Shown here: piece by piece, positions 6,412 through 26,566 of the stretch
How positions within the stretch are numbered: the first letter of the stretch is position 1
Layout: every line of letters begins with the position of its first letter
DNA from: Candidatus Poribacteria bacterium
Lineage (GTDB): Bacteria; Poribacteria; WGA-4E; WGA-3G
Length of the DNA: 64,000 bases
Direction: 5' to 3'
NCBI GenBank assembly: GCA_965214095.1
Contig: OZ243938.1
Location: 5,056,001-5,120,000, forward strand
Program-made: the position numbers and the translations under genes
Notes under the pieces: generated by a model
Databases searched by the model: none
The model's input: only the letters and a program-made list of their open reading frames with translations
What the model was told of the DNA's origin: nothing

Positions 6412-6624
6412 ATGCTCAAAATCAACCCGCAATATCTTGTTGATGACAAAGGCGAAAAAACCGCTGCGTCCCTGACAATCAAAGAATTCCAACTGATCAT
6501 GCAGCGTCTTGAAGATTTAGAAGATATTTCAGAGATGAATGCTGCAGTCGAAACCGAAACCAAGCAGAACTTATGGAATATGCCGAGACACAACTTTGAA
6601 AGTTATGTGCCTCGCGCAAGTTGA
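6412..6624 (+). CDS. Small antitoxin-like protein, probably truncated or chimeric
   Basis: 'INPQYLVDDKGEKTAASLTIKEF...LEDLEDI' resembles small TA antitoxins; no toxin follows; C-terminus looks divergent. Confidence 0.5.
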   Translation: MLKINPQYLVDDKGEKTAASLTIKEFQLIMQRLEDLEDISEMNAAVETETKQNLWNMPRHNFESYVPRAS

Positions 6625-6687
6625 ATTGGGATAAGATGGACGAGGCGGAGCATGAAACTTTTGTTAATTACCTCATCCATGAGGATC

Positions 6688-7016
6688 TTCAGGCACCCAA
6701 GCCTAAAGGCATGGGATTGTGTTAATCTTCTGCCAGGCTTGATGTTCTTCGGTCTTGGCTCGTAACTTTACCTGTATGCCACCGAGGGGTCCCAGCGACC
6801 CACGATACAGAACCTCAGACACTTCCGACTTTGGAAGTTGTTCAAGCGAACTATCGTCTTCGAGTTACTTGGACACGGATATAATCAACGTGCCCCGATA
6901 TGCAAGACACTTCCGACTTGCTTGGGCATATAATAACAGACTTGACGTTTTCTGTCAAGCAAAATATAGGAACAGGCATTCCTCCCACACCTAAAGAAGT
7001 GGGCTTCCTGCCTGAA
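6688..7016 (-). mobile_element. Non-autonomous IS200/IS605-type mini-element (no tnpA/tnpB)
   Basis: Left end CAGGCA-GGAAG-CCCACTTCTTTAGGTGTGGG-AGGAA-TGCCTG; right hairpin CCCATGCCTTTAGGCTTGGG; left end homologous to the element at 26170. Confidence 0.7.
6930..6958 (-). promoter_or_regulatory. Internal sigma70 promoter of the mini-element
   Basis: TTGACA-17 bp-TATTAT; same position as the promoter in the 26170 element. Confidence 0.65.
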
Positions 7017-7040
7017 ACGTTGGTGAGTGAGAGATATATT

Positions 7041-7391
7041 ATGGAAAAGCAGAACCCTGTGGAACTTGAAAATATGTTTGACTTTATAAATCCAACGGCA
7101 ATCCGAATAAAAGGGACACGCGTCGGTATCGAAATTGTCATTGAGCAATTTCTTAAAGGGGCAGACCCAAGGGAAATTCAACGGCTCTATCCGAATCTGA
7201 CGTTGGGGCAGATTTATGTTACGATTACCTATTATCTGTTCAATAAGGAGAAAATTGATGCCTATATTGCAAAGGGCATCAAACAAGCTGAGGCTGCTTA
7301 TGAGGAACAACTAAAAAACCCGTCTCCTGGTGTCAAACGCCTCATGAAAATTAAAGCGGAACTTGAAGCACAAGGACATTATTCAGCGTAA
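7041..7391 (+). CDS. DUF433-family antitoxin
   Basis: 'IRIKGTRVGIEIVI...GADPREI...YPNLTLGQIY...YY'; ATG 7041 preferred because the ORF from 6900 runs through the mini-element. Confidence 0.85.
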   Translation: MEKQNPVELENMFDFINPTAIRIKGTRVGIEIVIEQFLKGADPREIQRLYPNLTLGQIYVTITYYLFNKEKIDAYIAKGIKQAEAAYEEQLKNPSPGVKRLMKIKAELEAQGHYSA

Positions 7392-7393
7392 TA

Positions 7394-7762
7394 ATGAATA
7401 AATACCAAATTCGCTTTCTGCTTGATGAAAACACCTCGCATGTTATCCAAGATGGACTCAAGCGAAAACAACCAGAAGTTGAGGTTCGGGTCATTGGAAG
7501 TGAAGGTGTACCACCACTCAGCACAAAAGATGAGGATATTCTTGAATTTCTGGAACGTGAGGGATACATCCTCGTCTCATCAAACCGAAGTACAATGCCG
7601 GTACATTTGCGTGAACATCTTCAAAAAGGCAGACATATTCCCGGTATTTTACTATTACGTCCTCGTGCCTCTTACCAGCAAATTATTGATACGCTTGAAT
7701 TGATATGTCTAGCAAGTGTGCTAGAAGATTTCCGAGATCAGATAACATATATTCCGTACTGA
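7394..7762 (+). CDS. DUF5615/PIN-like toxin (VapC45-like)
   Basis: 'IRFLLDEN...DEDILEF..REGYILVSSN...HIPGILL'; coupled to DUF433. Confidence 0.85.
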   Translation: MNKYQIRFLLDENTSHVIQDGLKRKQPEVEVRVIGSEGVPPLSTKDEDILEFLEREGYILVSSNRSTMPVHLREHLQKGRHIPGILLLRPRASYQQIIDTLELICLASVLEDFRDQITYIPY

Positions 7763-23297: not shown

Positions 23298-23957
23298 ATG
23301 AAAAACCTTTTGTTTGATTATCCCAGAAAAGACACTATAATTCAGATAGGTGATAGACAAATCAAACTCACGATTGTTGATGATCCAGATCGATTCTTGG
23401 ATACATTGAGTCGTGAGGATTGTGATGGGAGACTGTATCTACCGTACTGGACATACCTCTGGGAATCTTCTATAGGACTGGCACGTCACGCATCTGAGTT
23501 GGGTAATACAATTGCCGGACAACATATCCTTGAGATCGGTTGTGGTTTTGGACTTGCAGGAATAGTTGCCAGCCAAGTGGGAGCAGAGGTGATTTTTTCA
23601 GATTTTGAATATGATGCTCTTCTATTTGCACAACACAATGCACAGCAAAATGGTATTCGTTCTGTAGATTATGTTCAGGTGGATTGGAATACGCCGTGCT
23701 TTCAATGTCAATTTGATGTCATACTTGCATCTGATGTGATATATGAGGAACAGAATTGGCACCCCATAGTTCAATTACTAAAGAACTATCTAAAACCTGA
23801 TGGCATTGCTATTTTTTCTGAACCGAATCGCAAAAACGCAGGTGGATTTTTCAAAGATATTCGTAAAAACGGATTTACCTTTGAAAAATTCACTTGCTTT
23901 GTCACGTTAGACAATAAGGAAAGACAGGTTAACCTATACACAATTCAAAGGAATTAG
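23298..23957 (+). CDS. Class I SAM methyltransferase (METTL21/Methyltransf_16-like)
   Basis: 'PYWTYLWESSIGLA', 'LEIGCGFGL', 'DVILASDVIYE'. Confidence 0.85.
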   Translation: MKNLLFDYPRKDTIIQIGDRQIKLTIVDDPDRFLDTLSREDCDGRLYLPYWTYLWESSIGLARHASELGNTIAGQHILEIGCGFGLAGIVASQVGAEVIFSDFEYDALLFAQHNAQQNGIRSVDYVQVDWNTPCFQCQFDVILASDVIYEEQNWHPIVQLLKNYLKPDGIAIFSEPNRKNAGGFFKDIRKNGFTFEKFTCFVTLDNKERQVNLYTIQRN

Positions 23958-26161
23958 TCAGAATTCTCATCCTCAGGTTGTTTTGCTGGATGAATTTCAT
24001 AAGTGGTTCCCTTGTAAGAAACAATCACATGTTTTCCTATTGAAAGATATTGTGAGATATCAGGTTCTTTCTTTAGCAGATCAAAATATGCATCGGTACC
24101 AAATTCAATCTTCTTGGTCTTTGTCTCAGATTTATATGTGGTATCAACCCAAACACCATCTTTAAGATGGAAGGTTTTATTTTTCACCTGCTTAATTGTA
24201 ATTGCCGTTTCTGCTAACTGCTCACCTTTCTGGAGTTTTTGTAACTCTATACTTTCTAGAACCACCATTTCTCTTGCGCTTGGTGCAGTTACAGGTTGTA
24301 CCAAATCAACATTAACTCTCGATTCACTGACCTTTGGAGCATGGGTACTAACAGATCGTGCCATTTTTGCATAAAGATCTGATCTCCCTCTTTGTGAGCG
24401 ACTTAAAACTGGATTCTGTTTCTGTTCTTCTGTTACAAGAAATGACGTGTAAGGCGTCATGATCCCGTACTTTTCGCTGAGTCGCACAATTTCCTCTTCC
24501 AATTCCTTATTTTCTCCGTTTAGCCTAACTTCGTCAACAAGATATGCAACCTTACGTTGTGCCCACAACCTTGGGAGAAATTGGTGATCGGACTCATTCT
24601 TTGGGAACTTTGCATTATTGGAGAATTCCTTTCTTTCTCCGTTGATGTCTCCATGCAAAATCAATTCAGATTTCCCGCTGCCTACATATCTGCCAAGTAC
24701 AGTCAACTGGGAACCGCGAAATAGATGTGGTAACTTCCGCGGATAGAGATTTTTTGTTTTTATGTTCTCTATTTCCAAATCCAAATTGACGAGAATAGGT
24801 TCGCTCACCTTTGTGTAGAAAGATGAAACAACGACCTCTAAATCTTCTTGCGGTTTGACATACTGACGTGTGCCACCGTTTTGTTCAGCCATTTTGTCAA
24901 GTAGATTGACGTTTACATCGTATCCGACACCGAAAACGAATATACGCGATTTATCCCCATTTCTTCCAGAGACATTCTTGAGAATTTGCGTGGCATCTGT
25001 TACACCGACAGTTGCTTCTCCATCAGTGAGAAAGACTACGATGCGCGGTCGTTTTGGGTCTGGTGTGTCGGATATAGCAGCAAGTAGTGCGTCATTGATA
25101 TTTGTGCCGCCAGTCCCTGTAATATCATCAATAAACTCAATTGCATTTTTGCGTTCCTTTTTGACAGAAACTAATTCTTTAGAAAACGGTTCAACATCTG
25201 TATTGAAAAGGATGAGGTTAAATCGGTCTCCATCGTTTAGATTTTCTACACAAAAACGGAGTGCCTTTTTCGCTTGCTCTATTTTAGGTCCTTTCATGCT
25301 TCCAGAACGGTCAAGAATAAAGATAAAGTCTTTTTCAATTATCTTTTTCTTATCAATCTCATATTTTGGAGAGATAAGGAGCATAAAAAAGCCATCTTCA
25401 TCTGGATCATCGCGATGGGTTATTAGGTCAATCCCGAAATCTTTGTCGGATAGGGAATAGTAGCAGGCAAAATCTCGTACAACATTAACATTATTTCCCT
25501 CATAACTGATTGTCGCACGATGATCATCTTTGCGATTAACTGCAACTTCATGTGAGGGGGAATAGATTGTCTTGAGTTCATGCTTGCTCTTTAGGTCAAT
25601 TGAAACGGAGAGACTACCAACAGGAAAATTCGTGAATTTGTCGGTTTTTAGTGGATATGTATATCTTGCTAATGCCGAATCTACACCTATAACCTGAGAG
25701 TATTCCAATTGGATACGTCTTTCTCCGTTTGGAGGAATTGGGAACACTCTTGCCTGAAATGCACGAGTGCCGACATACTCCAACAGTGCGGGGTCTTGCA
25801 TGGAACGGACAATCCCTTCATAGATACTCTTTGCTTTTGCTTTCGCGAGTAGTTCTGCTTTTACAGGTTGTCCATCTATGTATAGCACAAAATTTGAAAT
25901 GGCAACTTCATCTTGTAATGGAAAGAGATATGTGCCTTCAAGTTGCATGTTGTTTGGATTAGCGAATACCTGATCAATTTTCGTTGTTGCGAGCTGGTTG
26001 TCAATAGAAACGTTCACATGGTGTTTTTCAATTCTTAGGTTTTGGATTTGCGGTGCACGTCGTCCAGTCGTCCTGATTATTATGCCTTGTGCCTCAGCAA
26101 ATTGGACTACTCCCGCGAGGAGTAGTATTAATATGGTCGTGAGGAAATTTAATTTTCTCAT
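23954..26161 (-). CDS. Secreted VIT + vWA domain protein
   Basis: Signal peptide; VIT 'TKIDQVFANPN..LEGTYLFP'; MIDAS DRSGS, TDG; 'YGIMTPYTSFL'. Confidence 0.88.
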   Translation of the reverse strand: MRKLNFLTTILILLLAGVVQFAEAQGIIIRTTGRRAPQIQNLRIEKHHVNVSIDNQLATTKIDQVFANPNNMQLEGTYLFPLQDEVAISNFVLYIDGQPVKAELLAKAKAKSIYEGIVRSMQDPALLEYVGTRAFQARVFPIPPNGERRIQLEYSQVIGVDSALARYTYPLKTDKFTNFPVGSLSVSIDLKSKHELKTIYSPSHEVAVNRKDDHRATISYEGNNVNVVRDFACYYSLSDKDFGIDLITHRDDPDEDGFFMLLISPKYEIDKKKIIEKDFIFILDRSGSMKGPKIEQAKKALRFCVENLNDGDRFNLILFNTDVEPFSKELVSVKKERKNAIEFIDDITGTGGTNINDALLAAISDTPDPKRPRIVVFLTDGEATVGVTDATQILKNVSGRNGDKSRIFVFGVGYDVNVNLLDKMAEQNGGTRQYVKPQEDLEVVVSSFYTKVSEPILVNLDLEIENIKTKNLYPRKLPHLFRGSQLTVLGRYVGSGKSELILHGDINGERKEFSNNAKFPKNESDHQFLPRLWAQRKVAYLVDEVRLNGENKELEEEIVRLSEKYGIMTPYTSFLVTEEQKQNPVLSRSQRGRSDLYAKMARSVSTHAPKVSESRVNVDLVQPVTAPSAREMVVLESIELQKLQKGEQLAETAITIKQVKNKTFHLKDGVWVDTTYKSETKTKKIEFGTDAYFDLLKKEPDISQYLSIGKHVIVSYKGTTYEIHPAKQPEDENSD

Positions 26162-26225
26162 CTAATCTTCGGGCAGGAGACCCAATCCTTTAGGTTTGGG
26201 AGGAATGCCCGCTCCTATGTTTTTC

Positions 26226-26254
26226 TTGACAATAAATGTCAAACTTGCTAAAAT
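26226..26254 (+). promoter_or_regulatory. Internal sigma70 promoter of the mini-element
   Basis: TTGACA-17 bp-TAAAAT. Confidence 0.7.
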
Positions 26255-26257
26255 ATA

Positions 26258-26566
26258 TTCGGAAAGTTCAATCACACGTAGTCGTGTGTGAGGTTGTCCG
26301 CAGTCTTTGGTGCTATATGTTGCGGAGCATAAAACTGAAAAACATATACGCTCTCACTACCATAGACACATAACAATTGAGTGGTAGGGACATGGGAGGT
26401 AAAAAACCCAGTCCGAAAACACACTCTCAAATAATAAGTTGCTCTTTTAGAGCAAGTGAGGTTGCTTAGAACCCACTGTGGAGACGAAATAAGACGGATG
26501 ATCCTTTTGGTGAAACGCAACGTCTATGAAGCACAAGTCCAACCCTTTAGGTTTGGGTACTATGAC
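26258..26566 (+). ncRNA. Putative structured non-coding RNA (multibranch domain plus omegaRNA-like 3' part)
   Basis: TTCGGA(26258)/TCCGAA(26412) closing stem around TCACACG/CGTGTG, TCCGCA/TGCGGA and CTACCA/TGGTAG stems; then TTGCTCT-TTT-AGAGCAA; directly after the promoter. Confidence 0.5.

Follow-up and report, generated by a model that had tools for sequence, protein, structure and literature searches.

The 335-bp element at positions 6688-7022 of a 64,000-nucleotide stretch of Candidatus Poribacteria DNA (the window) is probably a non-autonomous mini-transposon of the IS200/IS605 family, of the PATE kind, and its cargo is most likely a guide RNA. The boundaries, copies, and empty site of this element were observed, as were covariation of its hairpin, a consensus promoter, conservation and covariation of its RNA, and tnpA and tnpB genes elsewhere in the genome. 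It is referred to here as type A, and a sister element located in the same window as type B (Table 1).

Table 1. Positions in the window of the type A element, its parts and immediate flanks, and the type B element
Feature	Positions	Strand	Description
Type A mini-element	6688..7022	-	335 bp, probable non-autonomous IS200/IS605 element (PATE-like); copies, empty site, and bridging RNA-library contig
Target / transposon-adjacent motif TCAC	7023..7026	-	Immediately precedes the left end, which was inserted without target duplication; TCAC kept in the empty site
Left-end nested hairpin	6973..7014	-	Outer stem CAGGCA/TGCCTG, 5x5 purine internal loop GGAAG/AGGAA, inner stem CCCAC/GTGGG, loop with CTTTAG
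Sigma-70-type promoter TTGACA-17-TATTAT	6930..6958	-	Extended -10 TG; 11/12 matches in promoter scan
Structured RNA, ~235 nt	6688..6923	-	Start near 6923 predicted from the -10; runs to the right end
RNA helices	P1 6902-6921; P2 6871-6896		Conserved core from AGUAACU at 6869
Direct repeat copy 1	6817..6831	+	RNA strand AAGUCGGAAGUGUCU, 3' side of internal hairpin P3b; conserved in family alignment
Direct repeat copy 2	6905..6919	+	Loop of hairpin P1 on RNA strand
Right-end hairpin CCCA-T-GCC-TTTA-GGC-T-TGGG	6696..6715	-	Followed by TGCCTGAA to the right boundary at 6688
Flank beyond right end	6668..6687	-	Putative guide segment, from its position only, if the RNA acts as an omega-RNA (GATCCTCATGGATGAGG...)
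Type B mini-element	26162..26566	+	Left end and promoter as in type A; target TCAT (26158-26161); terminates on the right in ...GGGTACTATGAC

Five copies of type A (339-345 bp, 96.5-100% identity) with unrelated flanks were recovered from the source genome by using BLAST. An empty site was found in a related genome (G051), where window position 6687 was joined directly to 7023 (...CTCAC/GATCCTC...), and the same joint was bridged by one contig from an RNA library. The empty site therefore delimits the element to 6688-7022, inserted 3' of TCAC without duplication, and extends to 7022 the end that the initial annotation had placed at 7016. Insertion 3' of a short motif without duplication is the signature of IS200/IS605 peel-and-paste transposition. 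The motif preceding the left end was TCAC in 5/5 type A copies, TCAT in 5/5 type B copies, TTAC in 5/5 copies of a third left-end type, and TTCAC in 4/4 copies of an autonomous element. The flank beyond the right end was different in every type A copy and lies directly after TCAC in the empty site.

Read along the minus strand, the layout of type A is TCAC / CAACGTTT - CAGGCA GGAAG CCCAC TTCTTTAGGT GTGGG AGGAA TGCCTG - TTCCTATATTTTGC - TTGACA GAAAACGTCAAGTCTGT TATTAT - RNA - CCCATGCCTTTAGGCTTGGG TGCCTGAA / GATCC, with the left-end hairpin (CAGGCA through TGCCTG) running from 7014 to 6973. Both subterminal hairpins (6973-7014 and 6696-6715) have a common CCCA..CTTTAGG..TGGG core on the minus strand and covary across the family; they are imperfect hairpins on the same strand and not terminal inverted repeats. 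The right end resembles that of an autonomous element carrying tnpA and tnpB (AATCCCAATGCCTTTAGGCTTGGGTAGTTGAA), with a near-identical hairpin and terminus. Neither of the two internal ORFs of type A matched a Pfam family. Two other family loci in two species (L004 in G020 and L013 in G003) were followed by the same right flank, TTCACCAAATTATTATATCA, which begins with the TTCAC target motif; this common flank suggests an orthologous, old insertion.

Genes on the plus strand border the element on both sides. A small ORF (6621-6737) follows a RelB-like gene (6412-6624), and the insertion replaced its last two codons and stop (..HEDRE, then stop) with a 14-codon tail derived from the right end of the element (..HEDLQAPKPKGMGLC, then stop). 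Just past the left end (7041-7762) lie a DUF433 gene and then a DUF5615/PIN-like gene, likely a toxin-antitoxin pair. The type A copy studied here sits 19 nt upstream of the ATG of the DUF433 gene, whose native ribosome site it does not disrupt.

The initial annotation had pointed to a left end of the same architecture at 26170, and this was recovered together with its AGGAA linker (CGGGCA...AGGAA-TGCCCG). The outer stems of the two had also been read as a compensatory change. That reading failed for the pair itself, given that the A-T pair is a substitution in the studied copy alone; the other four type A copies combine CAGGCA (TAGACA in one) with TGCCCG and thus have an A.C mismatch. At the level of the family, however, both stems covary: compensatory changes were found in each of them in an alignment of 49 distinct left ends, with outer-stem variants that include GGGCA/TGCC, GGTGT/ACACC, GGTAT/ATACC, AGATTT/AAATCT, GGGTT/AACCC, and GCAGT/ACTGC. 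Over a stretch of 75 nt, the two types share 83-84% identity at their left ends. Separately, in two type B copies (G000:C1:3279467-3279543 and C1:959508-959583), the 5x5 loop that is mismatched at window 26162-26211 (GGAGA/AGGAA) has become a perfect stem, converted towards the 5' arm in one copy and towards the 3' arm in the other. This looks like hairpin-templated (quasipalindrome) correction.

Within the promoter, the -35 TTGACA is located at 6958-6953 and is separated by a 17-nt spacer from the -10 TATTAT at 6935-6930, which has TG in front. The TTGACA-17 module claimed at the outset is thus present both here and at 26170, although the -10 reads TATTAT and not TTATAT; the type B promoter is TTGACA-17-TAAAAT. 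The TTGAC-N7-GTCAA palindrome over the -35 was also confirmed (6942-6958). A -35/-10 pair spaced at 17-18 nt was present in 31 of 52 distinct left ends, and an inverted repeat over the -35, with a variable spacer, in 30 of the 52; this repeat could be an operator. The third left-end type has CTTGA-N6-TCAAG where others have the palindrome. The same left end and promoter module also precedes the 373-aa tnpB of a full-length element (G000:C1:325901). Since the module also drives this resident tnpB, the promoter is taken to be the transposon's own. Left end and promoter together thus amount to the usual left end of IS200/IS605 (IS1341-type) elements of this genome, with its tnpB promoter. One candidate outward promoter on the opposite strand (TTGACA-17-YATAGG) has a -10 that lacks the final T and was set aside by inspection only as unconvincing.

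The interior of type A encodes a structured, conserved RNA. RNAalifold applied to nine sequences gave 58 pairs, six of them with compensatory change. In an alignment of 20 sequences, modelled with five nested helices and one pseudoknot helix, 96.7% of cells were able to pair, as compared to 34-44% when the partners were slid. Nine pairs were changed on both sides in this structure, and its covariation score, pseudoknot helix included, was reached by 0/500 shuffles. The internal pseudoknot helix itself covaries. Helix 1 is uninformative, since the search pattern demanded it and it is therefore invariant. Folding of the single sequence was only marginally better than that of shuffles (z-score -1.96). 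Among the stems proposed in the initial annotation, GCAAG/CTTGC and GGGTC/GACCC showed compensatory changes in the nine-sequence alignment, whereas TGCCC/GGGCA gave way to a pairing of GGGGCACG with CGTGTCC.

A 15-nt direct repeat (AGACACTTCCGACTT) had been noticed as well, as a conceivable protein-binding loop, and it is exact at both positions listed in Table 1 (0 expected in 100 shuffles). The stem of P1 covaries (GC to AU in two of nine sequences) with its loop kept, and this loop, which consists of the repeated 15-mer, is complementary to the 5' strand of P3b. Some lineages lack P1 and P2 or have other modules in their place, so these helices are accessory.

The distribution of the RNA was surveyed by using a covariance model (R1) of 177 positions with the right end left out (the full RNA has 232 positions), and by pattern scans. 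Model R1 found the RNA in 6/40 genomes of the genus. A pattern scan returned 21 loci with the RNA, all of them in MAGs titled Candidatus Poribacteria; the left-end hairpin was present no more than 260 nt upstream in 18 of these, two were cut by a contig end, and one had no recognisable left end. A relaxed-pattern scan of metagenomes also yielded 21 loci, of which only three were true relatives, each of them a mini-element. The search of Rfam 15, whose families include HEARO, the IscB omega-RNA, produced 0 matches at gathering score across the whole window, and so connected the RNA to no described family. A miRNA match in 6600-7100 (Rfam, E up to 10) had an E of 1.7 and was discarded as chance.

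Expression was read from contigs of sponge RNA libraries, which give no strand, ends, or DNA control. Short contigs of related family RNAs had a word depth of 192, versus 2.5 for a flanking-gene contig, in one run (X1), and a related-RNA contig reached 6854, versus 45 for a flanking-gene contig, in another (X6). The related-RNA contigs align over ~34 nt, to internal parts only and with four mismatches (85-90% identity), and their loose ends were matched by eye to L056- and L060-type members. Parts of the stretch that no library contig covered are not counted as untranscribed. These high word depths are consistent with strong expression of related family RNAs. Conservation, covariation, and probable expression of this RNA together indicate that it is probably not an inert remnant.

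Profile searches of the source genome identified 22 TnpB-domain matches and five Y1_Tnp matches. Four copies of a 1.8-kb autonomous element encode tnpA together with a 420-aa TnpB, and the TCAC target is common to these copies and type A. In one of the four, a different repeat of ~115 bp (G000:C1:4229804-4229918) with more than 30 genome matches (75-98% identity) was inserted in the left-end hairpin. The tnpB-only, IS1341-type element at G000:C1:325901-327290 has a nested left-end hairpin and a TTGACA-17-TATACT promoter with palindrome; a leader of 95 nt separates these from tnpB, whose 373-aa product has OrfB_IS605 and Cas12f1-like TNB domains. It is like type A in the architecture of the left-end hairpin, in promoter type (79% identity over 94 nt), and in its TCAY target. 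It differs in that the 95-nt 5' UTR and tnpB stand in place of the RNA, and in its right end (GGGTGCTATGAC). Open frames of 528-568 aa with a TnpB-domain match were also present; the one inspected has an overlapping 195-aa ORF that, read by eye and without a family scan, looks like an IS607-type serine recombinase. One contig of this assembly (G000 contig C2, 32,066 bp) has 64% G+C, versus 41% in the chromosome, and may be foreign or a binning contaminant.

The cargo RNA is most likely a guide (omega) RNA for a TnpB encoded elsewhere in the genome. It adjoins the right end, reads outward according to the direction of the promoter, and is of a size that fits an omega-RNA. Once the right-end hairpin had been excluded, comparison of the interior to the element carrying a 408-aa-frame tnpB gave a score of 53, reached by 0/300 shuffles and by one of 3000 random genomic windows; that single window scored 352 and was presumably a type A copy. 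The match covers the 3' coding end of tnpB (zinc-ribbon and RuvC-III codons), with the reading frame destroyed. The same comparison to the 420-aa tnpB of the autonomous element gave a score of 39, which was reached by 6/300 shuffles and 37/3000 windows. At their 3' ends, two resident tnpB genes thus bear a weak, above-chance resemblance to the type A interior.

TnpB of the autonomous clade (at least 50% identity) was present in four of six genomes carrying the RNA and in 4/34 non-carriers, these genomes being related and not independent. In two of the carriers, G016 (a remnant copy) and G046, no autonomous-clade TnpB was found with that query. The RNA was never found downstream of a tnpB in the 40 genus genomes, the 21 loci from MAGs, or the three from metagenomes, and no tnpB lay between left end and RNA in the 21 MAG loci. 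Model R1, applied without its filters, had no hit in 10 resident tnpB loci or in five autonomous-clade TnpB loci; the best E values were 1.2 to 8.8 and involved one short hairpin. A GGGnnGCUGnnCCC hairpin was seen repeatedly, at non-significant values (E 1.2-5.5), where autonomous-clade tnpB genes have their 3' ends. An nhmmer profile built from 18 diverse family RNAs likewise returned from the genome, besides the five copies, only right-end hairpins (E 0.44 to 2.3). For a terminal pseudoknot like that of ISDra2, the candidate pairings, of UACYUG with CAAGUA or YAGGUA, were judged by inspection only; they conflict with supported helices and have no covariation.

The type B element, of which four full copies and one truncated copy were found by BLAST, has a clearer relation to tnpB: its last ~150 nt are homologous to tnpB 3' ends (E 6e-16). 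The right ends of the two types differ (type A GGGTGCCTGAA, type B GGGTACTATGAC). The initial annotation had called their interiors unrelated, and by direct comparison they are not alignable above chance (a score as high was obtained for 823/2000 random genomic windows); unfiltered, model R1 also gave no hit on type B in the window. An intermediate element connects the two. A 450-bp element in another genome (L032, in G020) matched type B at a level reached by 0/2000 random windows, and the type A model matched L032 with an E of 6e-5 in 23 kb and 0.015 genome-wide. Because L032 links both interiors, the cargos of type A and type B are probably distant relatives, as far as these alignments indicate. 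Against the 408-aa-frame tnpB element, L032 matched at the ends and nowhere else.

These observations bear on three other accounts of the RNA. It might belong to an RNA-only mini-transposon and have a role apart from TnpB, as a trans-acting regulator, in antisense or read-out effects on a neighbouring host gene, or in the control of transposition. We regard this as unlikely. Such a role would suit an RNA that was never found linked to tnpB and for which profile and covariance-model searches gave no tie to tnpB 3' ends; it would also suit the optional nature of the 5' modules P1 and P2, the complementarity between the internal repeat and the RNA's own helix, and the placement of members beside host start codons, where local regulation is conceivable. 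A fixed right-end position and outward direction are, however, needed by a guide RNA and not by a trans-acting RNA, the interior does bear a weak likeness to tnpB 3' ends, type B has a clear tnpB 3'-end homologue, and a target or partner for this role is yet to be named.

That internal deletion from a tnpB element produced type A as an inert derivative, with ends kept for TnpA and an interior of decaying tnpB 3' sequence, is very unlikely. The initial annotation had named deletion derivatives of a tnpB gene as a competing origin, and this was borne out in part: a weak alignment joins the interior to tnpB coding sequence at its 3' end, with the frame destroyed, and no protein family was recognised in the internal ORFs. 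Decay is nevertheless at odds with the cross-species conservation, the nine covarying pairs and the 0/500 shuffles that reach their score, the persistence of the RNA in many diverged lineages whose ends also changed, the promoter retained in 31/52 distinct left ends, and the abundance of related RNAs in RNA libraries. The idea first put forward, a mobile cassette system that keeps ends and promoter while swapping unrelated structured RNA payloads, is likewise given little credence. Its premise of a gene-less family with a shared, covarying left end and promoter was borne out, the similar left ends of types A and B do adjoin interiors that direct alignment leaves apart, and type A mixes a left end like that of the tnpB-only element with a right end like that of the autonomous one. 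But the right ends differ between types, so that ends are not kept as a pair, L032 ties the interiors together, and no unrelated payload occurred among the 21 + 3 family loci. Both interiors moreover occupy the guide-RNA position: the RNA module sits next to the right end, the place of TnpB guide (omega) RNAs, which speaks against a freely swappable cargo.

Under the preferred reading, in which type A carries a guide RNA for a TnpB supplied in trans, the Y1 TnpA of resident autonomous IS605 elements would move the mini-element as single-stranded DNA by way of the left- and right-end hairpins, with insertion 3' of TCAC and without duplication. An RNA of ~235 nt would be transcribed from the left-end promoter towards and across the right end, its start being predicted from the -10, and the read-through would append 16-20 nt of flanking DNA past the right end as the guide. 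A TnpB nuclease from elsewhere in the genome would then load this RNA in trans; it would cleave the empty site, flanked by TCAC, that excision leaves behind, and recombination would restore the element. Retention would thus be the proposed function of the RNA.

Insertion sites were also surveyed with regard to neighbouring genes, using loci L002-L104, left-end sites of the source genome, and window 26158-26566. The complement of the TCAY target is ATGA or GTGA, and this codon opens a long ORF in divergent orientation at 26/41 distinct insertion sites, against a baseline of 14.9% of random ATGA sites (binomial P ~2e-12, with some sites orthologous and not independent). Many of the abutting ORFs have clear N-termini, for example signal peptides or argininosuccinate synthase-like and acetolactate synthase-like starts, and two further metagenome copies also abut start codons. 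An empty site in another genome (G021) places type B between the native GGAGG and the ATG of the gene at 23954..26161; in the direction of this host gene, the type B left end reads AGGAGC, a 42-nt hairpin, 8 nt, and ATG. Left ends of the TTAC type are without the GCTCC motif, and 0/5 abut a start codon. We hypothesise that the reverse complement of the left end gives the host gene a split ribosome-binding site (Shine-Dalgarno). A full-text literature search found no report of a split ribosome-binding site of this sort.

A broader picture is offered tentatively and with low confidence: far from being casual deletion products, the RNA-only IS605 mini-transposons of Poribacteria may make up a long-lived lineage that has a promoter-driven and never tnpB-linked guide-like RNA and settles exactly between ribosome-binding site and start codon, and they would rewire host translation initiation while an RNA-guided nuclease holds the element in place. 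If real, the start-codon bias would represent a new way for an insertion sequence to inhabit the translation-initiation region without killing the gene. In Salmonella, the left-end hairpins of IS200 act in gene expression besides transposition: they block transcription from outside and occlude the tnpA ribosome site. The left-end stem-loops of the present family may also have a part in gene expression, but a different one, the putative supply of a ribosome site to a host gene by the reverse complement of the left end.

Type A provides a clean natural example of what is probably a guide-RNA-only transposon, which fits two hairpin-bearing ends, a strong promoter, and an RNA into 335 bp and comes with an empty site, an alignment across several species, and covariation. 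Use of the RNA by a resident TnpB in trans would support a modular view of TnpA, TnpB, and omega-RNA and would make the element a compact natural expression cassette for such RNAs. The family also extends the mobile-element biology of Poribacteria, for which a full-text search found no paper on TnpB or on a named RNA motif.

Omega-RNAs are located at the right end and read outward, according to the ISDra2 study (Nakagawa 2023, PMC10097598). As described there, the ISDra2 TnpB omega-RNA derives from the 3' end of tnpB plus the right end, and its pseudoknot joins the last scaffold bases before the guide (-5..-3) with -103..-105. Type A RNA is like it in being long and structured, in lying at the right end behind an outward-facing promoter, so that the flank would be the guide, and in having a pseudoknot. 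It differs in the absence of tnpB in cis, in the internal position of the pseudoknot, and in the motif, which is TCAC and not TTGAT; neither sequence nor covariance-model searches gave a match.

The closest counterparts are the PATEs (palindrome-associated transposable elements) of Geobacillus stearothermophilus, gene-less derivatives of IS200/IS605. According to Meers et al. 2023 (PMC10055086), these often encode omega-RNAs whose use depends on TnpBs supplied in trans by other elements. Type A agrees with PATEs as presented there in its IS200/IS605 ends, in being without a protein gene, and in the mobilisation by TnpA in trans that would be expected of it. Relative to PATEs as described in the text of that study, the type A family differs in occurring in Poribacteria, in carrying its RNA directly behind a near-consensus left-end promoter, in the lack of a detected tnpB-linked RNA counterpart in the genomes searched, and in persisting and diversifying across species with most members abutting host starts. 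To the extent that this published description applies, the finding adds a member, in Poribacteria, to an already published kind, namely PATEs with omega-RNAs.
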